Shown here piece after piece: positions 1-60,000 of a stretch of DNA of 64,000 nucleotides (its first letter is position 1; every line of letters starts with the position of its first letter). Below the pieces are notes generated by a model that searched no databases, had not been told where the DNA came from, and saw only the letters and a list, made by a program, of their open reading frames with translations. The translations under genes and the position numbers were made by a program. The stretch spans positions 69,737 to 133,736 of the forward strand of contig CAZJPJ010000002.1 in the NCBI GenBank assembly GCA_964548205.1. Direction: 5' to 3'. The DNA is from an uncultured Candidatus Saccharibacteria bacterium. GTDB lineage: Bacteria > Patescibacteriota > Minisyncoccia > Phycocordibacterales > WO2-35-19.

Positions 1-396
1 CTTGAAAATAAGTGTAGGAAGATAATAAAAGAAAAAGAACTTAAGGACGTAATAATAATTAGGTGGAGTGATATAGAATCAAATAGTTATTATATTGAAT
101 ATTTAGAAAAGATAAAAAATCTTTTTAGGCAAAATGAGGAATTCAAGATCGATATAGAGAATACAACTCGAGGTGTACTAAAAAATAATGTTACTGATTT
201 GGATGAGGGTAGGGCGATAGAAATCGGTGTTAATTTTTTGTTTCAAGAACTAGCCTTCATTTCTAATGCTGCTAGGATTTTAGATCTAGATAAAATAGCT
301 TATCTCTACCATTCAACTATGCCAGTGTTCAAAAATATGGTTGAAGGTAGATATCCTTTGGATACCCATAACGTTGGCTATATTACAGCAGTATAG
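1..396 (+). CDS. Cyclodipeptide synthase (CDPS)-like protein, C-terminal fragment; 5' end lies outside the window
   Basis: Frame 1 is open from base 1 to the stop at 394-396. The C-terminal sequence FLFQELAFISN...AYLYHSTMPVF aligns by eye with AlbC-type CDPS C-terminus (Y-x3-E region and Y202-H203 of the NYH subfamily). This is from my recall of AlbC, not a search. Confidence 0.45.
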   Translation, partial: LENKCRKIIKEKELKDVIIIRWSDIESNSYYIEYLEKIKNLFRQNEEFKIDIENTTRGVLKNNVTDLDEGRAIEIGVNFLFQELAFISNAARILDLDKIAYLYHSTMPVFKNMVEGRYPLDTHNVGYITAV

Positions 397-553
397 CTTA
401 CTGCGAACAAGAATCCCGGTCTGGTAGGGAGGTGGTAGTTGATCATGATGTGATGAGTGCAAACCAACAGGCTGCAGAAATAGCAGCAAACAAAGCTGTT
501 GGTTCCCCCAACTATAGGGAGGATCAAAAATAACAGGTTACCAAACAAAACAA

Positions 554-590
554 CCCGACACGAAGCCTGTGTCGGGCTTCGTTTTTATTT
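554..590 (+). terminator. Rho-independent terminator after the CDPS-like gene
   Basis: 8-bp perfect stem cccgacac/gtgtcggg with a 7-nt loop, followed by a T-run (cttcgtttttattt). Confidence 0.6.
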
Positions 591-615
591 ACAGAACTAT
601 GGTAGTATTTTGGGC

Positions 616-1209
616 ATGGAAAGTTTTAAAAATTATAGAGAATTAAGATTTGCTAACCTTGCTCCAGAAGTATGGAAAAAACTTGATGAAATTCCTAGAA
701 CGGGTTGGGTAAAAAGAGGTGTTAAAAACCCAGAAACAGTACAAGAACACACGGTTTCTTTGAGGGATTTGGCCATAAGTCTATTTTCAAAACTTACAGA
801 ATTTTCAGAAGAAGAAAAACAAGTGTTGATTGATATGTTAGAAATCCATGACTGGCCTGAAGCAATTGTTGGGGATGAGATTGTTTTAGAAGATGGAACT
901 GAAGAGAAAAATAAACTAAAAGAAGAAAAAAAGATAAAAGAAACTAAAGCTATGGTTCAGATATGTAGTAGTCTTGGAGATGAAGGTAAAAGGGTTATGG
1001 AGCTTTGGTTGCAATTTGAAGAAGGAAAAGGTTTGGTGGAATCTTTTGCACGAGAATTAGATAAATATCAGGCAGTAGAAAAAGCTTTGGAATTTGAGAG
1101 AGATCAAAAATTATCTTTGTTTCAGGAGTTTAAAGAGTATGCCTCAAGGTTTATCAGACACCCTTTGTTGGTTGAGCGTATGAACGGACTAAATAATGGT
1201 GCAAACTAG
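616..1209 (+). CDS. HD-domain phosphohydrolase (YfbR-like 5'-deoxynucleotidase family)
   Basis: The ORF track starts at 499, but 554-590 is a terminator hairpin, so the likely start is the ATG at 616 (MESFKNY). Motif RTGWVKRGVKNPETVQEHTV matches the HD hydrolase signature R.GW....E.V.EHS. Confidence 0.7.
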   Translation: MESFKNYRELRFANLAPEVWKKLDEIPRTGWVKRGVKNPETVQEHTVSLRDLAISLFSKLTEFSEEEKQVLIDMLEIHDWPEAIVGDEIVLEDGTEEKNKLKEEKKIKETKAMVQICSSLGDEGKRVMELWLQFEEGKGLVESFARELDKYQAVEKALEFERDQKLSLFQEFKEYASRFIRHPLLVERMNGLNNGAN

Positions 1210-1251
1210 TGATGTAGATGTGGTGGAGTATGGATCTGTTATTTATTTTCA

Positions 1252-1282
1252 ATAATCCTAGTTCTAACATCGTCCACTAGGT
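1252..1282 (+). repeat. Copy A of a 24-bp direct repeat (ATAATCCyAGTTCTAACATCrTCC) plus ACTAGGT
   Basis: Same 24-mer recurs at 2232-2255 immediately after the next gene. In copy B a GC hairpin is inserted before ACTAGGT. Confidence 0.6.
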
Positions 1283-1296
1283 TGCGCAGCGAGCAA

Positions 1297-1330
1297 AAAG
1301 ACTACTGAATTTCAGTAGTCTTTTTGATTG
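1297..1330 (+). terminator. Rho-independent terminator after the HD gene
   Basis: agactactg / cagtagtct perfect stem followed by ttttt. Confidence 0.55.
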
Positions 1331-1339
1331 CCTATGCAG

Positions 1340-1547
1340 GCAATGGATGAGATTTGAAAGCCGCAGCGCCCGAGCGTAGCGAGGCTGGACTTAGCAAAGT
1401 CCAGAAGCGAGGCAGGGTCGTGTGGCCAAAATTACGACGGTAATTTTGGAACACCTGACCAAATCCCAGCGTCTCCCTCTGTAGCTTTAGCGAAAGGGGA
1501 TCACTCGCGCATCGAAAAAAACCATAGAAGTATGGTTCTTTTTCTTT
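1340..1547 (+). ncRNA. Candidate structured RNA (sRNA or cis-regulatory leader) upstream of the methyltransferase gene
   Basis: GC-rich ~200 nt in an AT-rich genome. Consecutive perfect hairpins: ttgcc/ggcaa, ctggact/agtccag, ccaaaattac/gtaattttgg, aaccata/tatggtt, the last followed by a T-run (terminator at 1514-1547). No protein-coding potential. Confidence 0.3.
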
Positions 1548-1584
1548 ATACTGACGGGACGGAGAACTGTGGTATATTTGAAAT

Positions 1585-2235
1585 GTGGAAGAATTAAATC
1601 CAAATAATAACTTATCTGAAAATTCAGAGAATGGTGAAGGTTTAGATTTTCGAAAGCTAATCCAGCACGAACCTTATGAGTTGGAAATTGGAGGGGAGAA
1701 AATATCTATTCATGATGGTGTATTTGCTCCTGACTCAAGCCTTACAAATTCTCCTTTTATTATTCTAAATAATTTACCTAATGTTTCAGGAAAAGAGGTT
1801 TTAGATATGGGAACGGGGACAGGAATAATTGCCTTGGTATGTGCTAGAAATGGAGCTAATGTTGTTGCTGTAGACAGTGATGATAAGGCTATTGAAAATA
1901 CTAAAGAAAATGTCCAAAAAAGTGGTCTAGGAAATATTGAAGTCGTTAAATCTAATTTATTTGAAAATATAAGTGGTAAGTTTGATTACATTTTTGCCAA
2001 CCTGCCAATTTTAGATGAAATCTGGGATGGGACTGAAAAAACGGCATCTACGGTTGAAAGATTTTTAACGGAAGCAAAAGCGCATTTAAATACAGGTGGA
2101 TCAGTGTATGTACCTTGGTTTTCAGTTTCGGATATTAGAGACATCCAAGATATTGCAAATCAGCTTGGTTATAAACAAGAATTAATTACTGAAAGTAAAT
2201 TGGGATTTGATTGGTACCTACTGACTTTATCATAA
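1585..2235 (+). CDS. Class I SAM-dependent methyltransferase (small-domain / HemK-RsmC-like)
   Basis: GTG start. Motif I VLDMGTGTGIIAL and a motif IV-like DYIFANLPI (variant of NPPY). Confidence 0.7.
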   Translation: MEELNPNNNLSENSENGEGLDFRKLIQHEPYELEIGGEKISIHDGVFAPDSSLTNSPFIILNNLPNVSGKEVLDMGTGTGIIALVCARNGANVVAVDSDDKAIENTKENVQKSGLGNIEVVKSNLFENISGKFDYIFANLPILDEIWDGTEKTASTVERFLTEAKAHLNTGGSVYVPWFSVSDIRDIQDIANQLGYKQELITESKLGFDWYLLTLS

Positions 2236-2298
2236 TCCCAGTTCTAACATCATCCCTGCCCGCAATGCTTCGCATAGCGATGCAGGCGGGCACTAGGT
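2232..2298 (+). repeat. Copy B of the 24-bp repeat, carrying a ~35-nt GC-rich hairpin insertion before ACTAGGT
   Basis: ataatcccagttctaacatcatcc, then the hairpin tgcccgc...gcgggca, then actaggt. The TAA inside the repeat (2233-2235) is the methyltransferase stop codon. Confidence 0.6.
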
Positions 2299-2696
2299 GT
2301 TCCGAATTATGCTAATATTTCACGCATGATACGTTGGTTGGTTGATCGTAAATACTTTAGAAACGAAAATCATGCCATATGGTTTGCATGTTCGCTGGCC
2401 ATAATATTTTTCGTGACACTCACGTATCTGAGGCCAAGCAAATTCATTTTTCTTTTGACACCGCTCGTTGTACATATACCCGCTCTCATAAACTCTTCTA
2501 TCTCCGTTTACTTTGCTAAGGAGAGCGACTTGTATTCTAAAGACTGCATTTGGTTCAATGCTCTTTTGATAATTGTTTACCTAATATTATTTTCACTTTT
2601 TTAGACTCTATAGAGTGTCTGGCTTTCGCTTTTATAAAAAACGTAGAGGCTTGATGTGGTATCATATAAAAATAAGAAGCTATAACTGAGTAGTTT

Positions 2697-3101
2697 ATGA
2701 GAAAGTATAAAAAATGGTTGGTGTCAGGTGTTATCTTGATTGTAATCGGGTATGTCGTATATAGCTTTGTCGACAAAGGTCCAGGTGAAAATGCTTTTGA
2801 TAATCAGGTGACTATTGTAAGCAAGGTAGACATATCTTGGTCTGAGAGGGATCAGCTAGCCAAGTCTGTAGATCAGTTTATGAATGAATACAAATTGCCT
2901 AAAGGAGTACAAAATACATACTCCATGACTATCGAAAAAAGATTGAATGATTCTATCGAGATAAGTACTATGGTTCTTGGTGCCGGGGCTGATGATAGTG
3001 TGGTTATCTTTGCAAAGAAAACTAGCGGTGTCTGGCAAGTGGATCCGAATGGAGGCCCTTGGTGCACCATAGAAACTTTTGACAACAATACTTGCTTTTA
3101 G
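2697..3101 (+). CDS. Hypothetical protein with N-terminal membrane anchor
   Basis: 134-aa ORF with an N-terminal hydrophobic helix (WLVSGVILIVIGYVVY). No recognisable domain. Confidence 0.45.
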   Translation: MRKYKKWLVSGVILIVIGYVVYSFVDKGPGENAFDNQVTIVSKVDISWSERDQLAKSVDQFMNEYKLPKGVQNTYSMTIEKRLNDSIEISTMVLGAGADDSVVIFAKKTSGVWQVDPNGGPWCTIETFDNNTCF

Positions 3102-3796: not shown

Positions 3797-6700
3797 TTAA
3801 TTATTATTTATTAAATATTCCAAATCAGATTTCAATAAGTTGTAAGCTTGCTCATTTATTTTACCTCTTCTCAAGAAAGAATCGAGCTCTGCTTCTAATA
3901 ATTTTATTATTATCTTATCCACTTTTTGCTCATACTTACCATATCTCTTTTTCTCAAACTTTATTATTAGCTTAGCTTGCCTCAACAACCGGTCTCTAGT
4001 TTTTTTGTCTTTTATCCAGCCAAGATCATAAGCCCCATTTATATCTCCAATGACAATATCGAGTGTGGTTACTCGTTCTGTTTCCAGCTCTTCGGGATTG
4101 TCATTATTTACTAGGGCATTTATTTCTGTGATCTGGTCTGGCTCTGTTACTCCCAACACCTCTTTTGTAACAAAATCTGTATCAGAAATATAGCTTGTGG
4201 CTACTTTGTACTCTCCGCCATTATCAGTACCTATTATTTCTATTTTATATTCCCCATTTTGTGGGTTAGGGATGGTAATGAACTCGTTGTTTGTATCAAA
4301 GCCAGAATAGAATGCTAGGGGTATCTCACTATATTCCTCTCCTGTCGCAAAATTTTTGCCTACCCGCTTGCCATCAGGAGCAGTAATCACCACATCGATA
4401 GGTGAGTATAGTTGGATAACAAAGAGATTTTCAATAAGACTATTGTTTATATTTTCGATCGAATCGCGACCAGTTAATATTTTTACTACATCTCCTTCGG
4501 TTATAGTAGGTAAGGCTCTATGATCGGCAGAATAAGATACATTAGGAATATTGTCATCTAGTGTTGCACCAAATATAGTAACTGTGCCGTCTCCTTGTCC
4601 AAGTTCTAAAGATTCTACTTCACCGTGTTCCCACTTTTGTGTATCTGTTGTTGGGACAACTACAATATTTTCAATAGTGTTGTTGCCAGTATTGCCAGTT
4701 ATATTTGTAATCTTTACTCCACTGCCTATGAGTTTGTCGGTATTTATATTTAAGGCTTCGAGAAAAATATTTCTAGGATAATTATCTGGGTATTGTCTTA
4801 CTACGCCCGTGTCTTTATCCTCTATATAATCAAATGTTGGCAAAAGTTCCTGTATAGATACTATCGGTCTATTCCTTATATAATCAAATAAATTTGTATA
4901 ATAATTATGGAATGCCTCAGCTGTGAAAATTAACTTAAGTATTTTACCAAGAGGGTCGTCTAAAAATTGACCAGCTTCCCAGTTTAGATAAGATTGTGGC
5001 GACCCCCTGTGTGGTGTTCCTAAGAAAATAAGTTGGTCGACATTATGTTGGTACTGACCAGATTGGATATATTCTCGCGCTACTAGGCCTCCCATAGAGT
5101 GTGCGACCAAGTCAACTTTGTTACAGTCTACCTCTGATAAATTTGCACTAGCACACTCAGATATCACATTGGTAATCTTATCTTTGAGTAGATTCGCCGT
5201 GATGATATTTGAATCTCTCCACTCATAAGGGAAGGTAAAGAGTGTGGAGCCTTTTTCATAACCATTGGCTTCGAGTGTGGCAATGAGGTTGTCGTATGTG
5301 TGGAGAAGTGGATCGATCAACCATTTGCCTAGTGATGCTTTGTACTGACTCCCCATAATCCCCGGAATTATTATGACGGGGTTTAGGGTGGGAGTAGGAG
5401 GTTCTGAACCAGGAGGGGAAGTGAGAAAGGGTATAAAGTTGGCGCTGCCTTTTATAGTATGGCCAGAGCCAGAGGTGTTGTCGGTCTGATGATAAGGACC
5501 ATCGGGGGAACCCCACCAGTTGCTTGTGACATTTGGTATCTCGGTACCACTTTTGTTCCATAGTCCATAGAAGCTGATACTACTCTGATTTTCGCCTTGG
5601 GTGAAGAAAGAAGAATTGTGCATGGCAAAATATCCACCTTCGAAAACTATTCCATAATTGTATATACCGCTATCGATGGCTGAGTTTTGGATATCGGTAG
5701 TTCCCGACAGTTGATTGATGGCAGTATTCTCACCCTTTTCAATTTTTAAATTATCTACAACGATATTGCCCCCATTGTTTATCAATGCCCCGTAGTTGTA
5801 AGTATAAGGCGCTGGGAAAACAACACCCCTGGCATATTTCAAGGTTGTGTTCGATATATTTATAGTGCCACCATTTTCAGCAACAATGCCTCCTGTTAGT
5901 ACATTATAATTGCTAGTAGCATCTCCATCGTTGTTGGTGTCACCTCCAAAGCTGTCGTCGTAGATTGAGGTGAAGATCACAGGGTTCTCTTTTGTGCCCT
6001 CGATACTTACTTCACCCCCTCTGGCTATGATACCGTTGTCTTGAGTACCTTTGAGTATAGTACCTGCAGTGACTATCAGCTTGTTTGGAGCTTCTACGGT
6101 GCTACCTAGAAAGACATATGGTTTACCATCTATAGGGCTTAGGGTTTTTGTACCTTTCGGTGAACCGTTTATAATCCATGTGTCGAAGTCGCCCCCAGTT
6201 ATAGTCGTACCCTCTATGTCGAAGTCAATACCAAGTGAGACATAAGGAGCGTGTTGATTGTCTACAAAATCTACATTTCTTATGTATAAACTACTTTCAT
6301 TGTTGCTTGTCTGAAAAATATTTAACCCATGCGATATCGTGGAGTTGGTAAGATGGAGAGAGCCGTTCTCCAAGCTTACAGCTCCGAAGTTGTTATCCAT
6401 GGTTGTGTTGTCTATGTCGGTGTCTCCTCCGTCTAAGTAAAAAACTTGAGAATTATTTATGAAGGTAGAGTTTGTTACACTCACATTGCCTCCTAGGTTT
6501 GTGATACCAGCACTGCCGGGAGGGAATTGGGCAAACCCAGCCCATCTTTGGTGTAAAAAATTGATATTGCCCCTTGAGCCATCTCGGAAGACAAAACCAC
6601 CCCAACGGTCAGTGAAGTTTGGGGCGGAATCAGAAGTGTTTCTAAATATTACTGGATCATCGTTTTGTCCTAAAATGTTGAGCGTACCAAAGATGTCGAA

Positions 6701-6928
6701 TTTTCTTCCATTGCCCACTATCACCTCGACTCCAGCCTCAATATTTAAGACCCCAGTGTCTGTGATGGTTATATCTCCACCGTAAATATTTGGAATAAGG
6801 TAGGGGCTACCAGCAAGGTCCCAAGTGGTGTTGTCTTCTATATACAAATCAGTGACCACTGTTTCAGCCAGCGCGGCTGTAGGCCACAGTGCCGACAAAA
6901 GCAACAAGTATACGAAGCTTTTTGTCAT
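3797..6928 (-). CDS. Large secreted multidomain protein: signal peptide, parallel beta-helix-like repeats, lipase-type alpha/beta-hydrolase domain
   Basis: 1043 aa. N-terminal signal peptide (LLLLSALWPTAALA). Asn/Gly/Thr-rich repeats typical of right-handed beta-helix proteins. Lipase-like domain with GxSxG nucleophile elbow (LVAHSMGGLVAREY) resembling Bacillus LipA/PGAP1-like hydrolases. Confidence 0.75.
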   Translation of the reverse strand: MTKSFVYLLLLSALWPTAALAETVVTDLYIEDNTTWDLAGSPYLIPNIYGGDITITDTGVLNIEAGVEVIVGNGRKFDIFGTLNILGQNDDPVIFRNTSDSAPNFTDRWGGFVFRDGSRGNINFLHQRWAGFAQFPPGSAGITNLGGNVSVTNSTFINNSQVFYLDGGDTDIDNTTMDNNFGAVSLENGSLHLTNSTISHGLNIFQTSNNESSLYIRNVDFVDNQHAPYVSLGIDFDIEGTTITGGDFDTWIINGSPKGTKTLSPIDGKPYVFLGSTVEAPNKLIVTAGTILKGTQDNGIIARGGEVSIEGTKENPVIFTSIYDDSFGGDTNNDGDATSNYNVLTGGIVAENGGTINISNTTLKYARGVVFPAPYTYNYGALINNGGNIVVDNLKIEKGENTAINQLSGTTDIQNSAIDSGIYNYGIVFEGGYFAMHNSSFFTQGENQSSISFYGLWNKSGTEIPNVTSNWWGSPDGPYHQTDNTSGSGHTIKGSANFIPFLTSPPGSEPPTPTLNPVIIIPGIMGSQYKASLGKWLIDPLLHTYDNLIATLEANGYEKGSTLFTFPYEWRDSNIITANLLKDKITNVISECASANLSEVDCNKVDLVAHSMGGLVAREYIQSGQYQHNVDQLIFLGTPHRGSPQSYLNWEAGQFLDDPLGKILKLIFTAEAFHNYYTNLFDYIRNRPIVSIQELLPTFDYIEDKDTGVVRQYPDNYPRNIFLEALNINTDKLIGSGVKITNITGNTGNNTIENIVVVPTTDTQKWEHGEVESLELGQGDGTVTIFGATLDDNIPNVSYSADHRALPTITEGDVVKILTGRDSIENINNSLIENLFVIQLYSPIDVVITAPDGKRVGKNFATGEEYSEIPLAFYSGFDTNNEFITIPNPQNGEYKIEIIGTDNGGEYKVATSYISDTDFVTKEVLGVTEPDQITEINALVNNDNPEELETERVTTLDIVIGDINGAYDLGWIKDKKTRDRLLRQAKLIIKFEKKRYGKYEQKVDKIIIKLLEAELDSFLRRGKINEQAYNLLKSDLEYLINNN

Positions 6929-7036
6929 CTTTTGATGAAAATAGTAATTGATTTATTTATATAAATAATTACCTTGGGTGTCTAGCAAGAGTGGGGAAAG
7001 TAAAACCGTTGTGCCAGGATGTGCTAATATTTTTAT

Positions 7037-7591
7037 ATGGAAGGTGATGCAAAGAATGAACAAATTCAATACCCGCAGATAGCGCAAGAGTTGATAGAAA
7101 TGGCAGAAGCAGATCAAGCTATGAGAGAGCGAGCGGAAAATGAAGAAGGTTTTTGGGATGGCGAGGTAGATGAGAAAAATACGGCAAGGCTACAGGAGAT
7201 AGTCGGAGAAATAGGTTGGCCTACTGTTTCAAAAGTGGGCAAGGAAGCTTCTTTGCGAGCTTGGCTTTTGGTACAACATGCAGATCATGACCCAGAGTTT
7301 CAACAACATTGTCTTGATTTGATGAAGGAAGCTCGAGATGGGGAAGTAGACCCACACGACGTTGCGTATCTTGAGGATAGGGTAAGAGTAAATACTGATA
7401 GACCACAACTATACGGCACACAGATGGATACAACTTTTGATCGAGAGGGTAATGTCATAAGTTACAAACCAAGGCCAATCGAAGATCCAGAAAATATTGA
7501 TGCACGCAGAGCAAGTATGGGTATGGGCCCGCATGCTGAGTATGTACGAGAAATTTTAGAAAGCCATCATTCACATTTGTTAAAAGAATAA
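7037..7591 (+). CDS. Hypothetical protein (GC-rich gene)
   Basis: 184-aa ORF, noticeably higher GC than neighbours. No confident domain (WLLVQHADHDPEFQ motif). Confidence 0.5.
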   Translation: MEGDAKNEQIQYPQIAQELIEMAEADQAMRERAENEEGFWDGEVDEKNTARLQEIVGEIGWPTVSKVGKEASLRAWLLVQHADHDPEFQQHCLDLMKEARDGEVDPHDVAYLEDRVRVNTDRPQLYGTQMDTTFDREGNVISYKPRPIEDPENIDARRASMGMGPHAEYVREILESHHSHLLKE

Positions 7592-7838: not shown

Positions 7839-7874
7839 AGCGTGTGTAGTAAAAGTTGTGCTAAAATATTCTAA

Positions 7875-8432
7875 ATGCTCAAGAATAACGCTCTAGCTCA
7901 TTTTGTCAAAGATGTTTTCATAATATGCGCAAGTATCATACTGGCTTATGTCTTGGCCAAGAGTGGGGCTGTGGCTAAACTTGTGGAGCTCGATGGGCCG
8001 TTTATGTTTGTCTCTTGGCTAGTGGCTGGAGCGTTTTTCACCTCTATATTTACTGTAGCTCCTGCAGGGGTGGCTCTGACAGAGATGGTCGATGGCAATT
8101 CTATGATTCTCATATCTGCTGTGGCTGCTCTTGGGGCCATGATCGTGGACACTATTATTATCTCTTTTGTCCGCAAAGATATAACCAACGACCTAAGTTC
8201 TCTTTCTGACTTTGCATTCCGCAAACACCTAATAGGAGCCTTTCATTTCGGCTTTCTCAAATGGGTAGCCTTGATATTGGGAGTCTTTGTTGTAGCTTCG
8301 CCTCTCCCTGATGAGCTTGGGTTATTCTTGATAGGTCTTTCTAAAGTACGCTCATCATTTTTGCCTCTATTATTTTTTATTGCAAACTTTATAGGTATCT
8401 TTGCTCTTCTTTCTATTGCTTCATCTTTCTAG
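7875..8432 (+). CDS. Hypothetical integral membrane protein
   Basis: 185 aa with multiple TM helices. Confidence 0.5.
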   Translation: MLKNNALAHFVKDVFIICASIILAYVLAKSGAVAKLVELDGPFMFVSWLVAGAFFTSIFTVAPAGVALTEMVDGNSMILISAVAALGAMIVDTIIISFVRKDITNDLSSLSDFAFRKHLIGAFHFGFLKWVALILGVFVVASPLPDELGLFLIGLSKVRSSFLPLLFFIANFIGIFALLSIASSF

Positions 8433-18155: not shown

Positions 18156-18266
18156 TTTTGTAGAGCAAAATTTGCTCGACCCCGACTCGGCTACGATTGC
18201 TTCGCAATCGGCTTCGCAGCCTCCGTCTTTCTCGTCCCTGACCGGCAGCTCTCCGCTGCGCTCCGA

Positions 18267-18337
18267 GCTGCCGGTCAGGGACTCGAACCCCAATACTCGC
18301 CTCCAGAGGGCGATGTCCTACCATTAGACGAACCGGC
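18267..18337 (-). tRNA. tRNA-Gln (anticodon CTG)
   Basis: Reverse complement folds with U1-A72 acceptor TGCCGGT/ACCGGCA, D-arm GTCT..GGAC, anticodon stem TCGCC/GGCGA with loop ctCTGga, T-arm TGGGG-TTCGAGT-CCCTG, discriminator G. U1-A72 and G73 are typical of bacterial tRNA-Gln. Confidence 0.8.
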
Positions 18338-18617
18338 AATACGTATAAATATTACATTTTTGCCTGTTTTTTTCCAGTTAAGCTCTTGTTTTGCTTGGGC
18401 TGGACTCTAGACCCACTCTTGTGTATAAAGAAAAAGTGGTAAGATTGGCAGCATAGAAACAAGTAACAAATGAAAAATTTTTCTGAGATATTTATAGCAA
18501 ACCAAGGTGAAGACGTATGGCTGACTCACGGGTTGCACTTGTAAATGGGGAAGTAAAAGAGATGACATACAATGAGTTTAAAATGAGTAATGTTTGAACG
18601 CGTGTTAATATGCATAT

Positions 18618-19046
18618 ATGTTACCTGACGAAAACTCGAAAAAATTTGTGGCAGTTTTGAATAAGAAGGTCGAAGTGGGGAAGCTTATGAATGCGCTTGG
18701 GCATATGACAGCAGGGCTGGCTGGGGGTTTTGGTAAAGGAGATGAAATGAATTTCCTTGAGTATGTTGATAAAGATGGAGGTATTCACCCCAAAATTTCT
18801 CATTTCCCTTTTATCGTTTTAAAAGCAGAAAATTCGAATCAGATTCGAAAGATTAGAAATGAAGCTCTGCAAAGGAGTATTTTGTGTAATGATTTCACAA
18901 GTACTATGACAGTGGGTACTTCAGACGATCAACTGGAAAGAACAAAAAATACCGCAGAGGTAGAACTGGAATATTGGGGAATCTGTATGTTTGGCAATAG
19001 CAATGAGTTGAAAGAATTTACAGGAAAATTTTCTTTATTTAATTGA
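18618..19046 (+). CDS. Hypothetical protein (DUF2000-like small conserved protein)
   Basis: 142 aa. Family assignment is from memory of the KFV.VLNKKVEVGKLMNALGHM pattern and is uncertain. Confidence 0.4.
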   Translation: MLPDENSKKFVAVLNKKVEVGKLMNALGHMTAGLAGGFGKGDEMNFLEYVDKDGGIHPKISHFPFIVLKAENSNQIRKIRNEALQRSILCNDFTSTMTVGTSDDQLERTKNTAEVELEYWGICMFGNSNELKEFTGKFSLFN

Positions 19047-27196: not shown

Positions 27197-30100
27197 TATA
27201 ATAAGGGGCTTTGCTTCTGTATTTTTGATATTAGCCATCTTTTTTATAGGTGTGCCATTTGATGGTATTGTTCATATTATAGAAGAGCGCAATATAGTCG
27301 ACCTACTATATAAGGCAGAAAAAAGTAGCAATGTAGTCGACAGCCTTTTCAAAGATATTGTCTTACCAAAGACCGAAAAAACTAGTGCGGCGACTAATGA
27401 TGCGATGCTCGTCTTCAACTCTAAAGTTGGGACATCTACCATGCAGTATAGGGTCTGGAATGGAAGTTCTTGGGGGAGTGAGTCAACAACCTCTGATTTT
27501 CATGGCTCAGAGATTCGTTGGGCCCAGATGAAATATGCGCCAAATCGTGATGAGGCTATTTTAGTAGTACTTACAAATACAGGTCAAGTACAAGCGCAAA
27601 TATACGATGGTAGTTTCTGGGGGGAAACTACTATTTTATCGACCTTGAGTGACTTAAATGGAAGTTCTGATGGAGGTTCTTTATACAGAGGATTCGATGT
27701 TGAGTATGAACAATCTTCAGGAGACGCTATTGTTGTTTCTGGAGATGGCACGGCGGATCCAAATTATCATGTTTGGGATGGGTCTACGTGGAGTTTGAAT
27801 AATAATATCGATATCCCAACTACAGGGAGACCAAACTGGATTGAGCTTGCTGCTCCTATGGCTACGACCACTAATGATTCTTTGGCACTTATTACATTAG
27901 ATTCAAACAGTGATATATATGGCATGCGTTGGACTGGTAGCTCTTGGGATAATATGGGGGTAACAACTACTTGGGATGCGGCCGCAAGTATCTCGACAAG
28001 GAAAGCGATAGATGTTGCGTTTGAGACAGGCACTGGAGATATCATGTTCTTATGGGGTGATTCTGTTGCTGCTGACGATCACAATTATCGTACTTATGCT
28101 GGTGGGGCTTTGAGTAGTATTGTTGCTCTTCCTAACTCAAATGCTGGAGGTCAGCCAAACTGGGTAAGGCTCGCACCAAATACTACCTCTGGTGCAAACG
28201 TAAATCAGATAATGCTTGGCACCTTGGACTCCGCTGCTGATCTATCCACTTTTATTTGGAGCGGTACTGCTTGGAGCGCTGTGCATGCAGAGCATTCTGC
28301 TGCCGTAGAGAATGCTGCTGTTCAACAGGATTTTGAAATTGTCTTTGAGACTCATGTATCAAATCCTGATGATGCGTGGCTCTTATGGAACAATGGTTCA
28401 ACAGTTTCTAGGAAATTATGGAATGGCCCTACTGCTGCCTGGGGTTCAGCTACGACAGTGGGAGATGATAGCGCCGGGTTGGTATTAAATTCACATCCCA
28501 ATAATGGAGCCGTGCTTGCTGGTATATATGAAGATACAAGTTCAGCCTCTGATGATATTAGTGAAATACATTTGACGGGTGGGAGTCAGACATGGTCTTC
28601 GCTTGCTGATTTTTGGACAGGACCAGTGCAAAGAGAGATCGGTCTTCTTCGTATGGCGCAAGCGGTGCAAAGTTATAATAATTCAAATGAAGCCATGGTT
28701 GCTTATGTTACAGAAGGGAGCACCTCGTATCCTCAGTATGCGCGTTGGAATGGTTCTTCTTGGGGCAGTGTTGCATCTACATCTCCTACCGCTGGCGAGA
28801 TTAGACACATGGTACTAAAGGCTGCTCCTACTAGAGATGAGCTCATGCTCGTTACCTTAGGTCATACTGGTCAAGTGCAGGCTCAGGTATACAGTGGTGA
28901 GAGTGGAGCTTGGGGTTCTGCTCAATTGTTAAACACTATGAATAATTCACAGGGTACTAGGGATACCCAGTCTTTATATAGAGGTTTTGACATTGAGTAT
29001 GAGAGTGCTTCAGGAGATGCTATCGTGGTGACTGGAGATGGCACGGCGGATCCAAATTATCATGTCTGGGATGGGAGCTCTTGGACGGGGCCTACTGACA
29101 TAAATATTCCAAATACAGGTCGCCCGAATTGGATAGAGTTGGCTGCACCACTCGCTACTACTACAAACGATTCACTCGCTTTTATATTGGTGGATAGTAA
29201 TGTTGATGTATATGGTATGCGATGGACTGGAAGTGCGTGGGACAATATGGGGGCTGCCGCAGTATGGGATGCGACAGGTGCTATTGCCACTGAAAAATCT
29301 GTTGACGTGGCTTTTGAAACAGGAAGCGGGGACATTATGTTTATATGGGGAGATTCGGTATCTACTGATCAATACTACCGGACTTATTCTGGAGGATCGT
29401 TATCTGCCGCTACTCTTCTTGATAATGCACAAGCTGGAGCTGTAAACAACTGGATGCGTCTTGCTCCAAATCCTACAGGTGGCTCTTTCCAAGATCAAAT
29501 CCTCTATGCAGTTCTCGACGGCGGTTCGGACCTCAATACATTTATGTGGAGCGGTACTGCTTGGAGTAGTGTGCACACTGAACACACTGCTGCTGCAGAA
29601 AATCATTCTAATCAGGTTTTTGATATTGCGTTTGAAACCCACTCCTCAAATCCTGATGATGCATGGCTTGCTTATGGGGATGGAAATACCATATCTCGTA
29701 AGCTTTGGAATGGTGCAACACAAACGTGGGGTAGCGCTACAACTCAAGGAGATGACACTGACTATATTGCTCTCAATGCTCATCCCAATACAGGAGCATT
29801 CTTTATGGCCGCTTATGAAAGTTCTGCTTCTGCTTCTGATGACGCCACCATCAATAATCTTAGTGGAGGCTCTCAAACATGGGGATCTGCAACAAGTATC
29901 TGGCCTGGTCCTGTTGGACGTGTTGGCTTAGGTCTTACACAAATTGCGATTGCTAGTGATCGATATCAATCTCCTACATTTGAACAATCTGCCTACCGTC
30001 TATTTACAAACACAAACTCGGCTGATGTAGGAAGCCCTCTTGCTCTGCAAGACACTTCGGCAACTCTTAGTTCTACCGGAGATGCTTTTAGACTCAGAAC

Positions 30101-38099: not shown

Positions 38100-38157
38100 C
38101 TCTCCGCAAGGTTGGCATTTTGTAAAACAGACTTGACGTCGGTGTTATAATAGATAC

Positions 38158-38703
38158 ATGCAAAATGAGACCAAAGAAACAATTGTATTTGGCGGGGGGT
38201 GCTTCTGGTGTACAGAAGCTATATTCAGGCACCTTAAAGGTGTCTTGTCTGTGATGCCGGGGTATGCGGGAGGTAGCAAAGATAGTGCGAGTTATGAGAA
38301 AGTCAGTGGTGGCGATACGGGTCATGTAGAGGTAGTAAAGATAGAGTTCGATAACCATACGATAACTCTCGAAGATCTCTTGAATGTATTTTTCCATACT
38401 CACAACCCTACTACTCCAAATAGGCAAGGGGCTGATGTGGGGGAGCAGTATTCTAGTGTCGTATTTTATTCGACTGACGATCAGAAAAAGACAGTAGAAG
38501 ATTTTATTAAGTTACTTGAGGACCAAAAAGCTTACCAAGAAAGAATAGTGACCAAAGTACTACCTCTCGAAGGTTTTTATGAGGCTGAAGATTATCACAA
38601 AGCATATTATGAAAAGAACAAAGAAGTGCCATATTGCGAGTTGGTCATAGGTCCGAAGATAGAAAAGCTCAATAAGCAATTTGCCAATCTTGTCAAAAGC
38701 TAA
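38158..38703 (+). CDS. msrA: Peptide methionine sulfoxide reductase A
   Basis: Active-site GGGCFWC motif and MsrA fold signature (PTTPNRQGADVGEQYSS). Confidence 0.9.
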   Translation: MQNETKETIVFGGGCFWCTEAIFRHLKGVLSVMPGYAGGSKDSASYEKVSGGDTGHVEVVKIEFDNHTITLEDLLNVFFHTHNPTTPNRQGADVGEQYSSVVFYSTDDQKKTVEDFIKLLEDQKAYQERIVTKVLPLEGFYEAEDYHKAYYEKNKEVPYCELVIGPKIEKLNKQFANLVKS

Positions 38704-41504: not shown

Positions 41505-41523
41505 ATTGTGCTAGATTTTTGGC

Positions 41524-42159
41524 ATGAAAACATCAACATGGGTTATTGTTGCCATAGTGGCTATAGTCGGTTTATTGCTAATACTAGGAGGTGGAGGGCC
41601 GAAAATTGAGCCCGCATTTGAGCTTAACGCTCTGCATCCTCTTGATCGTATAAAAGGGAATCCGAGCGGGGATATTGTCCTCCTGGAATACAGTGATTTT
41701 CAGTGTCCTGCTTGTAGGAGTTATTATCCGATTTTGAGACAAGTTGTGGAACAATTTGGCGATAGAGTAACTTTTGTTTATAGACATTTTCCTTTATCGA
41801 GCATTCATCCCAATGCGGATTTTGCCGCAAGAGCTGCTGAAGCTGCGGGCATGCAGGGCAAGTTCTGGGAGATGCATGATTTGCTTTTTGAAAAACAGGC
41901 TGAATGGTCTAGTCAATCAGATGTGGAAACAATATTTTCAAATTATGCAACTCTACTCGGTATAGATGTAGAAAAATTCAAAATCGACTGGAGATCTGAT
42001 GGTGTGAAGAATTTGGTTAATGCTCAAAAGCAGCATGCGATCAAATCAGGCTTTCAAGGGACTCCCACATTTCTTATAGACGGAAAGGTTATCGAAAATC
42101 CAAAATCTAAAGAACATTTTGAATCTGTTTTGATGGCTGTCATAGATGCAAAGAAATAG
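41524..42159 (+). CDS. DsbA-family thiol:disulfide oxidoreductase
   Basis: N-terminal TM anchor, active site FQCPACR, cis-Pro region GTPTFLIDG. Confidence 0.8.
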   Translation: MKTSTWVIVAIVAIVGLLLILGGGGPKIEPAFELNALHPLDRIKGNPSGDIVLLEYSDFQCPACRSYYPILRQVVEQFGDRVTFVYRHFPLSSIHPNADFAARAAEAAGMQGKFWEMHDLLFEKQAEWSSQSDVETIFSNYATLLGIDVEKFKIDWRSDGVKNLVNAQKQHAIKSGFQGTPTFLIDGKVIENPKSKEHFESVLMAVIDAKK

Positions 42160-57095: not shown

Positions 57096-60000
57096 ATGAA
57101 AAATCTGATAAATAATAGTGGAAAGAATTTTCGAGGAGTGATGGCTTCATTCTTGATTTTTTCTGTTGTCTTCGTAAATCCACTTTTGGTTCTTGCTGAT
57201 GAGGTTGTCGACGAGGCCGCACCTGTCCAAGATAATAGTGCGGTTGTAGAAGAGTTAACTACTCCGTCTACGGAAGACTCGGTAGTTGTTGATACTCCTG
57301 CTGACACTATTGTTGACGATAGCTCAGAATCAGAAACACCATCAATAGATGAAAACACAGTGGCAAATGATGAGCCTATGGACGCTTCATCTGATGTATC
57401 TACTGAAGGTGGTCTGGAAGGAAAGACAGAAGGATCTAGGACAGATGAAAAATCTGTAACCATCGATCAGGTTGAAACTGAAACTTCTTCTTCGACACAG
57501 GATTCACAAGAATCTGAGGTTTCAGACCAATCTAATAGCAAATCATTCGCTCCTACTTCTATAAGTTCATCTTCATATTCTGTTGCAAACACAAGCTGTC
57601 TGTTGCCAAGCGCTCTTGGTGATACAAAAGTAGACCCAATAACACATGGTCTAGATGCTGACTCGCTACAGGATATATTTAACACCAACAATACTGTAAA
57701 TAAGAATGTAATCTCTGATCAGGAGCAATATCAGGTTTGGTATACAACCAAGACTGATACTCATATAGTAGTCGAGTATGTAAATCCAGAAGGCAAGTTC
57801 ATTTCTGGCTTGAAGCATGTATTTGGTTTTTACAATATGGGTGACAAGTCTTCATTTGCTCCGCTTATGAAGAACGGGTCAGTTTCAGGTTTTGAATCCG
57901 TACCCCTACTAAGCTCTCATGGTGCCACTACATATTTTGACGTTACAGGAAAGAATAAGGCTATTGGTTTCGCTATAAAATCTAGCGAAAACTCTGCTGT
58001 GCCGGGCTCTCCTTTTGAAAACTATTCGGAAAACAGCTTGAACGATGATCAGGCTGATAAAATGGTCGCTTACAAGATATCTGACAACGAGTACGTGATG
58101 TCTTTTGAAGACTTACCTTATGATATCTCTGACACCGACTACAATGACTACACTGTTCGCATTACGGTTTCTTGTGAGGATATATACAAAAATCATCCTC
58201 CAGTCATAACTCTAATCGGCAACAACCCTCTGGTCATCACGCAGAACTCTACATTTACTGATCCAGGTGCTAGTGCTACAGACACAGAAGACGGCGATCT
58301 AACTTCAGCTATCATTGTAAGTGGCAATGTGGATACATCTGTACTCGGTACTACTACGCTTACATATTCTGTTTCAGACAGTGATGGTGCTACTGCTCAA
58401 GTTACAAGAAACGTGGTGGTTGTAGAGAATACCAATCCATTGATGTGTACAGAAAAAAATCTAGATACTTTTGCATCGGTTGGTGATTATCTAAAATTTA
58501 TTTACAAATCAAATTCTGGCCAAAAGCTTAGCAATACAGTAAAAAACACTGGTATATTGGGTGGAGAACTCGATGTTATGTATGTCGGAGATGTGAGTGG
58601 CAATGTCTCTAGTATTGATATTGGTGGCGGTAATCTAGAATTTAATAATAGTGTTAATACTACTGGAAAGGTGTTGCTTGTCTGGGATGGTGTCGATGGC
58701 GATGCTACAGAAATAAACTACAACGGCCTCAACAGTTTCAACCTTTCTCAAGGTGATAAAGCTGAGTCTATAAAGTTTAATTACAAATCTGATATTACTG
58801 AGAAGAGTATCTACCTAGATATGGTTGTTTACTCAAATGCGAGCAATGCCTCAAAAGCTACATACGTGATATATGGTGGAGATAATCAGGAACACCAAGC
58901 TGAGATAAAGCTATCTAGCTTTACAAATTTCTTGGGTAACGGAGCTGATTTTAAGAACGTCGGAGCCATTACGCTGAGTATCGATCTGACAGCCGGTACA
59001 GGTATAGATTTTGCTTTAAACAGCATAAATGTTGGTTGTGAAAGTGGTGATAATGGTGGTAATGGAGGTGGTGGTGGTGGAGATAATGATCCAAGTTTTA
59101 TTTGCCCACTTGAAACAAAAACAAACAGAATAATAGTTAGCTTTGAGGATGTTTGGGATGGTCTAAAGGGTGGCAAAATATTTGGAAATCAGGGATGGCA
59201 GAAAATGATAAGAGGTCCTTCTTCTACAAACATACCAGCTGGTGAATATAAAGTGACTTTCGTATCTTATGATGATAAGCATCCAAACGAAGTTACTCAG
59301 AATCATGAGCAATACAGAGTCTATCTTATGACTTCTTATGGTCATGACATAATAGGTCCAAGTGCAGACTTGCCTGACAACCAAACTTCACTCGTATATA
59401 CTCTCCCAAATACAATAAATATTACCGAGACTATTACTGAAGTTTATGCAAAGCACTATGCTTATCCGAACGGAAGCAACGACGAAGACGGAGTGTACCC
59501 TGTATGTGTAGCGTTCGATGCAGCTACTTCTACTCCTGTTATCAAATATCCTCCAGTCATAACTCTAATCGGCAACAATCCTCTAATTATCACGCAGAAC
59601 TCTACATTTACTGATCCAGGTGCTAGTGCTACAGACACAGAAGACGGCGATCTAACTTCAGCTATCATTGTAAGTGGCAATGTGGATACATCTGTACTCG
59701 GTACTACTACGCTTACGTATTCTGTAAAGGACAGTGACAACAATCAGGCTACTACTACAAGAGATGTAGTCGTCGAAGCAGCGGCAAATACTCCTGCAAT
59801 TTGTTCTGACAACATCGACAATGATGGTGATGGTAAAGTTGATGCGGATGATCCTGGTTGTCATCGTGATAACGATCCAAATAATAGTTCATCTTATGAT
59901 CCAAATGATGGAGATGAAACAGATGCAACTACACCTACAAATCCTCCTACAAATACCGGAGGTAGTGGAGGCGGAAGTAATGGTGGTGGCAGCAGTAATA

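Follow-up and report, generated by a model that had tools for sequence, protein, structure and literature searches.

A cyclodipeptide synthase gene and a conserved non-coding element 3' of accessory genes in an uncultured Saccharibacteria genome

Among cyclodipeptide synthases (CDPSs) of the NYH subfamily, structures are available for AlbC (3oqv/4q24), YvmC (3oqh), Shae-CDPS (6ez3), and BtCDPS (6ztu). Among the 3' sites of gene cassettes, the attC sites of integrons are characterized by an imperfect hairpin with R'' (RYYYAAC) and R' (GTTRRRY) inverse cores. For bacteria of the candidate phyla radiation (CPR), the CDPS of Parcubacteria RAAC4_OD1_1 (ParcuCDPS; CDPS 90, Gondry et al. 2018) has been expressed and assayed (PMC5816076) and crystallised (PDB 7qat-7qb8); it is an enzyme of the XYP subfamily whose products are cyclo(His-Pro) and cyclo(His-Glu) (PMC5816076). 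Here we analyze 64,000 nucleotides (the window; positions 69,737 to 133,736 of contig CAZJPJ010000002.1, assembly GCA_964548205.1) from an uncultured Candidatus Saccharibacteria bacterium, which open inside a CDPS gene followed by genes for an HD phosphohydrolase and an S-adenosylmethionine (SAM) methyltransferase, and which contain two copies of a 24-nt repeat. The original prediction for this locus, made from the sequence alone, considered a CDPS notable in a small-genome organism, which is overstated, since a Parcubacteria CDPS had already been expressed and crystallised (PMC5816076; PDB 7qat).

We hold with good confidence that the truncated first gene encodes a genuine tRNA-dependent CDPS, that is, an enzyme of a known kind, in a stand-alone unit whose neighbours are independent of it. 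CDPSs from these bacteria are annotated automatically, and the mere existence of the gene adds little to CDPS research. The most interesting part of the finding is the repeat, which is the core of a widely conserved, undescribed non-coding element located 3' of accessory genes and upstream of their terminator, often in arrays, and marking the ends of blocks exchanged between genomes. A sequence of 22-26 nt conserved to the base across many uncultivated genomes is the more unexpected result.

The cyclodipeptide synthase gene and its neighbours

The first open reading frame (ORF) of the window is open from base 1 and ends with a TAG stop at 394-396. In hidden Markov model (HMM) searches, its 131 residues match PF16715 (50.1 bits, cut-off 27) and TIGR04539 (66.9 bits, cut-off 45). 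A full-length CDPS, P0001, which was found in public data by protein search, is 100% identical over the fragment, and the Logan contig L001, with 1810 nt identical to the window, supplies the missing 5' part of the gene. The full-length protein matches TIGR04539 with 144.2 bits over profile positions 6-216 of 220, and its sequence matches in the Protein Data Bank (PDB) are all CDPSs (BtCDPS, 2e-15; Shae-CDPS, 1e-14; YvmC, 6e-9; AlbC, 2e-8). The AlphaFold2 model of P0001, a predicted structure built with 18 relatives, has a pLDDT of 92.9 and a pTM of 0.88; its top 50 Foldseek PDB matches are CDPSs only (TM 0.72-0.86, with 0.85 to 6ez3 and 6ztu), in keeping with the Rossmann-like fold of class-Ic aminoacyl-tRNA-synthetase type that AlbC, YvmC, and Rv2275 share. 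The formerly missing N-terminus contains the predicted catalytic Ser in a G-x-S motif, G31-L-S33, aligned with G35-I-S37 of AlbC. The HMM scores, the predicted fold, and the residue alignment of the full-length protein thus uphold the CDPS call made on the truncated ORF, including its AlbC-like fold and its Ser pocket. A scan of genome contigs with P0001 gave no match.

The annotated TTG start of P0001 (MNCGSILG...; L001 18-44, upstream of window base 1) falls inside the promoter, and every CDPS relative starts at an ATG giving MEILEL.... Because of both observations, the true start is most likely the ATG located eight codons later (M9 of P0001), which would give a protein of 214 aa. The genes of this region and the signals attributed to them are as follows.

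1-396 (+): 3' part of the CDPS gene, 131 codons and TAG, equal to residues 92-222 of P0001
554-590 (+): putative intrinsic terminator after the CDPS gene, GC-rich hairpin and T run (scan: 9-10 bp stems at 554-582, TTTTT)
594-615 (+): putative promoter of the HD gene, GAACTATGGTAGTATTTTGGGC; near-identical sequence before the CDPS start in L001 and before the methyltransferase start
616-1209 (+): HD phosphohydrolase (HD_3/YfbR-like), 197 aa; PF13023, 71.5 bits, cut-off 22.5
1551-1584 (+): putative promoter of the methyltransferase gene, CTGACG, 16 nt, TGGTATATT at 1570-1578; promoter scan, and homology with loci L034 and L035 from 1561
1585-2235 (+): class I SAM methyltransferase (MTS/HemK2-like), 216 aa, GTG start; PF05175, 80.4 bits
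2310-2604 (+): next module, extended -10 TGCTAATAT at 2310-2318 and 92-aa ORF at 2326-2604

The PF13023 and PF05175 matches confirm that the CDPS gene is followed by an HD phosphohydrolase and a SAM methyltransferase, both co-directional with it. The HD protein has the H...HD metal motif (H45, H78-D79) and is encoded in exactly the same form on L001, whereas the methyltransferase has an exact protein match in P0167. The latter matches TIGR00537 with 88.1 bits, barely over the cut-off of 87, and NF011529 with 123.6 bits, under the cut-off of 162; its motif IV reads A-N-L-P-I-L (NLPI), not NPPY, and so differs from the (D/N)PP(Y/F) of HemK/Mtq2. Given NLPI and the marginal TIGR00537 score, it was classified no further than as a class I SAM methyltransferase (MTS domain, GTGTG motif). 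No Pfam match was obtained for the 92-aa ORF of the next module, a 42%-identical homologue of which lies in the equivalent variable region of L035.

Each of the three genes has its own putative promoter, and the CDPS and HD genes also have a putative terminator behind them. All three are preceded by almost the same sequence, GAACTRTGGTAKTAT, giving an extended -10 roughly 7 nt ahead of the start codon. The extended -10 of the HD gene, TGGTAGTAT, lies at 600-608, 7 nt ahead of the ATG, so that its transcript would be leaderless; the CDPS gene is a stand-alone, monocistronic, and probably leaderless unit. Across the window, TGnTAnnnT is found 15-16 nt before approximately 18 of the 55 long-ORF starts and without a Shine-Dalgarno sequence (e.g., 7022-7039, 7860-7877, 18603-18620, 38143-38160, and 41509-41526). 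Given this spread, it is read as the general leaderless-type promoter of the genome and not as a signal of the cluster, and the genome seems to make leaderless mRNAs habitually.

The methyltransferase module also occurs elsewhere. Positions 1561-2263 of the window, comprising the promoter, the methyltransferase gene, and the repeat, are 86.7% identical in nucleotide sequence to L034 (GCA_964392285.1; 4977-5663) and L035 (56-732); the homology opens at the promoter (1561) and closes at the repeat. The encoded methyltransferases are about 90% identical over residues 21-216, while the proteins of the syntenic M10 peptidase and VTT genes are only 46-49% identical between the window and L034/L035. 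Since the module is so similar while its syntenic neighbours are less than 50% identical, the comparison suggests that it was exchanged horizontally and recently. Upstream of the methyltransferase gene, L034 contains AAA_16 and Prim-Pol genes and neither a CDPS nor an HD gene. Between its methyltransferase and M10 peptidase genes, L034 has one gene, L035 three, and the window seven, and more distant methyltransferase homologues sit among unrelated small enzymes. The window also encodes, at 3797-6928 (-), a 1043-aa protein with an LCAT/PGAP1-like lipase domain, in a stretch that is absent between the methyltransferase and M10 peptidase genes of L034 and L035.

The surroundings of the closest CDPS homologues all differ, featuring a NUDIX gene, a restriction system, or a Y1 transposase together with RNase HII. 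In view of the separate promoters and terminators, these differing contexts, and the occurrence of the methyltransferase module without a CDPS in L034 and L035, the CDPS, HD, and methyltransferase genes are three independent single-gene accessory modules in a variable region, the latter two not being tailoring partners of the first.

In L002, the contig of the closest CDPS homologue, the NUDIX hydrolase gene (2532-3065) lies 10 nt downstream of the CDPS gene. IS200-type Y1 transposases stand beside the CDPS gene in L004, L005, and L007, and IS91-type transposase fragments in L003 (546-1396). The contexts are consistent with the CDPS gene being itself accessory or mobile.

A repeated element 3' of accessory genes

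The direct repeat occupies positions 1252-1275 and 2232-2255, with 22 of its 24 nucleotides identical. It had been predicted to end each of the three genes. The two copies follow the HD and methyltransferase genes, and there is none after the CDPS gene, where an nhmmer profile of the element finds no copy. The sequence AATCCCGGTCT at 412-422, similar to the repeat by eye, was rejected as a post-CDPS copy, as both nhmmer and fuzzy matching find nothing there. The copy on the HD side starts 43 nt past the HD stop codon, and the methyltransferase stop (TAA, 2233-2235) is the only one inside the repeat.

1252-1288 (+): element copy 1, ATAATCCTAGTTCTAACATCGTCC ACTAG GTT GCGCA
1289-1331 (+): near-perfect 21-bp hairpin with flanking A/T runs after copy 1, a putative bidirectional terminator; 90% complementary, present in the minimum-free-energy fold
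1332-1545 (+): GC-rich, hairpin-dense non-coding spacer of about 200 nt; second putative terminator at 1515-1543
2232-2298 (+): element copy 2, ATAATCCCAGTTCTAACATCATCC, 36-nt GC hairpin at 2256-2291, ACTAGGT; its TAA is the methyltransferase stop

The element core can be written ATAATCCYAGTTCTAACATCRTCCAC. For its 22-nt part, AATCCYAGTTCTAACATCRTCC, 14 exact matches were obtained in JGI metagenome contigs, in each case within unrelated flanking sequence. A local duplication or chance was rejected as the origin of the repeat given these 14 matches and the absence of any match in 100 shuffles of the window. For a wider count we allowed one mismatch in the 17-nt centre and considered the window, L002, and 14 metagenome loci, which yielded 29 distinct copies with the consensus ATAATCC-YAGTTCTAACATCRTCC-AC. 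Only two of them lie in the 64-kb window (nhmmer), where the element thus follows two of about 55 genes.

Several identities were tried for the element and rejected. A coding peptide (NPSSNIVH or ILVLTSS frames) does not fit, as only 2 of the 29 copies have a long open frame upstream and the frame in which genes run into the element differs. A structured RNA was dismissed, with no Rfam match and a fold z-score of the core near 0. Of the 21 tRNA genes present in the window and the loci, none has an end resembling the element, which removes an origin from a tRNA 3' end or att site. Resemblances to attC, dif/pdif, REP, the DnaA box, boxA, and promoters of the extracytoplasmic function (ECF), sigma-54, and phage RNA polymerase types failed inspection because of the absence of a partner arm, the variable hairpin insertions, and the distance to the next gene, which varies and is interrupted by terminators. 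Association with phages was rejected as well, with one match in 2.9 million viral contigs. Literature searches for the element sequence and for integrons or cassettes in Patescibacteria returned nothing relevant.

Some copies carry a hairpin inserted between RTCC and ACTAG, with other hairpins at that position in L023 and L029. The 36-nt GC-rich hairpin of copy 2, CTGCCCGCAATGCTTCGCATAGCGATGCAGGCGGGC (2256-2291), is found 100% identical at L011 2032-2068, where it interrupts a tRNA-like D-arm fragment, and at L039 5080-5115, where it is flanked by a 13-nt direct repeat. Its perfect identity in three unrelated contigs makes it look like a tiny mobile palindrome in its own right.

The intergenic region that contains copy 1 (1210-1584, 375 nt) forms a chain of local GC-rich hairpins, with a fold z-score of -5.85 against shuffles. 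It has no Rfam match and, beyond the element and the promoter, no similarity to the other loci. A possible degenerate copy of the element within the spacer, AAATCCCAG at 1461-1469 and ACTCGCGCA at 1503-1511, is weak and is missed by nhmmer; the layout of the spacer resembles L034 4873-4950 by eye.

With respect to the function of the element, we infer two alternatives and give them similar weight. Tentatively, it may be an RNA signal in the 3' untranslated region (3'-UTR), situated between the stop codon and the terminator of monocistronic leaderless mRNAs and acting as a binding site for a protein or rRNA, as a determinant of processing or stability, or as an aid to termination. Nearly all 29 copies share their strand with a neighbouring ORF that starts or ends close by, and upstream ORFs, where identified, have their stop codon 0-160 nt ahead of the copy. 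Behind many copies comes an intrinsic terminator, at a distance of 20-70 nt, and after it the next promoter, and what is conserved is a sequence and not a palindrome. Speaking against an RNA signal are the absence of covariation and of a stable fold, and the lack of Rfam matches both for the element of the window, with E values allowed up to 10, and for 14 loci at the gathering score, where tRNAs alone were matched. An element following 2 of about 55 genes is, furthermore, no general signal, and an RNA signal alone would leave the homology breakpoints and the accessory cargo unexplained.

The element might instead, also doubtfully, be a DNA site of cassette-type site-specific recombination at which modules of promoter, gene, and element are inserted, lost, and exchanged, with the CDPS, HD, and methyltransferase genes standing in such an array. 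Same-strand arrays with one short, mostly ORFan gene per interval are found in L032 (8 copies in 7 kb), L022 (4 copies in 2.9 kb), and L027 (5 copies), and arrays start right behind tRNA genes. Their cargo is mixed (Fic, ParE toxin, NADAR, NYN, MazG, glyoxalase, DUF1643, DUF2103, DUF2268, STAS, and many ORFans). L021 equals L022 up to 16 nt past the element and is unrelated beyond, the methyltransferase homology block stops at the element, and by these comparisons the element appears to mark the ends of blocks moving between genomes. In addition, the element supplies the stop codon of several genes in different frames, and genomes whose proteins are more than 50% divergent still have the same 22-nt core. 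Several observations disagree with a recombination site, however. No recombinase was found among about 30 ORFs of the window and 10 ORFs of L032 that were scanned, and the core is devoid of dyad symmetry, of an attC-like R''/R' pair, and of a stable hairpin. The breakpoint between L034 and L035 follows the terminator (TTTTTGGTT), outside the core; metagenome assemblies can break or chimerise at repeats; and only two copies are present in 64 kb of this genome.

A broader and still more speculative proposal is that of an undescribed CPR gene-cassette system, in which units of a leaderless promoter, a gene, and the 3' site ATAATCCYAGTTCTAACATCRTCCAC would form arrays by tRNA genes and be exchanged between lineages, with the CDPS, HD, and methyltransferase genes as cargo. 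A recombination site would help in understanding how accessory genes are gained and reshuffled in very small genomes, whereas an RNA signal would represent a new 3'-UTR element associated with leaderless mRNAs.

Catalytic residues and surroundings of the synthase clade

The alignments relate the residues of P0001 to those of AlbC as listed below, with window coordinates in brackets.

G31: G35 of AlbC
S33: S37 of AlbC
N36: N40 of AlbC
F170 (235-237): Y178 of AlbC
E174 (247-249): E182 of AlbC
A176 (253-255): P184 of AlbC
Y194-H195 (307-312): Y202 and H203 of AlbC

The NYH trio (Asn40, Tyr202, and His203 in AlbC) is present as N36, Y194, and H195, which places the protein, as judged from the alignment, in the NYH subfamily. 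G31, S33, N36, E174, Y194, and H195 are invariant in the 18 aligned relatives and almost invariant across 150 cluster representatives. The homology with AlbC, YvmC, and Rv2275 suggests three steps: the first aminoacyl group would be moved from its aminoacyl-tRNA onto Ser33 of the G31-L-S33 motif, the second would then be added with Glu174 to give a dipeptidyl-enzyme, and Tyr194 would help to release the 2,5-diketopiperazine. A long helix of the model (residues 76-104) with 10 Lys/Arg fits the tRNA-binding helix of CDPSs and would bind tRNA.

Two of the six residues called family-conserved in AlbC and Rv2275 differ in this protein: Tyr178 is replaced by Phe, and Pro184 by Ala. Of the two C-terminal motifs named in the original prediction, YH is present (Y194-H195, 307-312), whereas Y-x3-E is not, the aligned motif being F170-x3-E174 (235-249). 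Phe170, aligned with the Tyr of AlbC, YvmC, Shae-CDPS, and BtCDPS, is invariant in all 18 aligned relatives and in the approximately 38 best clusters at 50% identity; among wider relatives, Phe and Tyr are mixed at this position, with Phe in about 40 of 150 clusters. Given this invariance in the clade and the alternation further out, Phe170 is no lesion. Ala176 is likewise invariant in the 18 relatives, with Ser in two clusters; over the 150 best clusters, Ala is the commonest residue at this position, and Pro is confined to the more distant ones. The usual hydrophobic strand that lines pocket P1 is replaced by an invariant strand, M61-I-P63-D64, in which M61 and P63 align with V65 and V67 of AlbC. 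At 17-25% identity to the known structures, the published P1/P2 pocket motifs do not transfer to this protein.

The window CDPS is matched by 132 clusters at E<1e-30. Relatives at 40-50% identity are encoded in nine genome loci, seven of which have a named taxon (Patescibacteria, Andersenbacteria, Saccharibacteria, and Nomurabacteria), all being Patescibacteria-type metagenome-assembled genomes (MAGs), and one of these relatives is labelled tRNA-dependent cyclodipeptide synthase by NCBI. The protein belongs to an unstudied NYH clade, whose organism-named members are all from Patescibacteria (CPR) MAGs. We filed it as a CDPS of a clade that departs from the canonical residue set, with activity inferred from homology. 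The approximately 38 Phe clusters (50% identity) within the 132 form a natural test of the role of the Tyr178 hydroxyl, and the Phe clade is a source of unexplored products.

It is unlikely, though worth stating, that the protein has the CDPS fold and is a non-classical enzyme, either impaired or of altered chemistry (another acceptor or a linear product). In AlbC, Tyr178, which anchors the first aminoacyl group, is conserved, its hydroxyl was judged essential, and the Y178F variant is poorly active (PMC3105412). Phe170 and Ala176 are moreover both invariant in the closest relatives, and M61-I-P63-D64 stands in for the P1-lining strand. However, Ser33, Asn36, Glu174, Tyr194, and His195 are all invariant, which argues for selection on the canonical catalytic cycle; the frequency of Phe among the related clusters indicates that the Tyr178 position tolerates either residue; and in quantum mechanics/molecular mechanics (QM/MM) calculations, Y178F has little effect on the cyclisation step (PMC5935735).

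Several points weigh against our reading of an ordinary CDPS in a stand-alone unit. The Phe170 clade is enzymologically uncharacterised and, with AlbC Y178F poorly active (PMC3105412), should not be presumed active. All promoters, terminators, and leaderless starts were read from sequence. The window opens inside the CDPS gene and L001 adds just 41 nt upstream, which leaves room for an upstream partner gene. Five of the nine loci with relatives (among L008-L016) have a conserved divergent gene of about 285 aa upstream of the CDPS gene, and SAM methyltransferases lie one or two genes from the CDPS gene in L010, L011, and L012, although these are unrelated to that of the window and to one another. 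In view of these three loci, there may be a loose functional link between CDPSs and methyltransferases. The products of the divergent genes are 55-84% identical among loci and have no Pfam or NCBIfam match; they may be a regulator or a partner of the CDPS.

L009 4044-4904 (-): about 285-aa neighbour, just upstream of the CDPS gene
L012 4044-4874 (-): about 285-aa neighbour, just upstream of the CDPS gene
L014 3242-4099 (-): about 285-aa neighbour, just upstream of the CDPS gene
L015 4031-4891 (-): about 285-aa neighbour, just upstream of the CDPS gene
L016 3970-4818 (-): about 285-aa neighbour, just upstream of the CDPS gene
L012 6509-7330 (-): paralogue of the about 285-aa neighbour

Least probable is a single biosynthetic cluster in which the HD hydrolase and the methyltransferase tailor the diketopiperazine, the set that the original prediction had considered plausible: the genes are adjacent and co-directional with very similar promoter sequences, methyltransferases are known CDPS tailoring enzymes and fusions with methyltransferase domains exist (PMC5816076), and three other CPR-clade CDPS loci have some SAM methyltransferase nearby, but the promoters are separate, the CDPS and HD genes are each followed by a terminator, the common promoter motif occurs throughout the genome, the nearby methyltransferases of the other loci are unrelated, the methyltransferase module recurs in L034 and L035 without an adjacent CDPS or HD gene, its distant homologues lie among unrelated enzymes, and there is no conserved linkage, since tblastn finds in the 15 other loci encoding CDPS relatives no HD homologue and, save one weak SAM-motif match, no copy of this methyltransferase.

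The remaining window is ordinary chromosome, including genes for RF2, FtsEX, CTP synthase, GroEL, RNase J, a class I tRNA synthetase, TsaD, and queuosine salvage. At 18229-18287, an inverted repeat of 23 nt with 91% complementarity overlaps the 3' end of a tRNA-Gln gene (18267-18338, -) and may be a tRNA end duplicated in an integration event. Two very large ORFs (1296 and 1310 aa) have long internal direct repeats at 27678-29668 and 58195-59737 (283 nt at 73% identity and 190 nt at 95% identity, respectively) and probably encode repetitive surface proteins.

Comparison with described systems

The window CDPS shares with the structurally characterized NYH enzymes the family HMMs, the predicted fold (TM 0.72-0.86), the basic tRNA helix, the Ser of the G-x-S motif, the equivalents of Asn40, Glu182, Tyr202, and His203, and a size of about 215-250 aa. 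It differs from them in its low identity (17-25%), in having Phe for Tyr178 and Ala for Pro184, in the invariant M-I-P-D strand where AlbC has V-Y-V-D, and in that its organism-named relatives are all from Patescibacteria MAGs. ParcuCDPS likewise comes from a CPR bacterium, but belongs to the XYP and not the NYH type and is a weak match (phmmer E about 2e-7, TM 0.63).

The element resembles REP/BIME repeats (repetitive extragenic palindromes and bacterial interspersed mosaic elements, associated with RAYT transposases) in being short and multi-copy, in its 3' intergenic position near terminators, and in the GC-rich hairpins nearby. In contrast to them, its core is non-palindromic and without the GTAG-plus-hairpin layout, no Y1 transposase stands next to the element copies examined, and it is common to distant genomes instead of being species-specific.

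The likeness to integron cassettes lies in units of one gene, mostly of unknown function, that form arrays; like attC, the element is a conserved 3' site co-oriented with the gene, sometimes placed over its stop codon, with a variable hairpin-containing segment inside. No integrase domain or IntI was found in the scanned ORFs of the window and L032, and no copy has a complementary GTTAGAA partner downstream of TTCTAAC, so that the R''/R' pair of inverse cores is missing. Unlike integron cassettes, the modules described here carry their own promoters, and unlike attC, the element is conserved not by structure but by sequence, over 22-26 nt.

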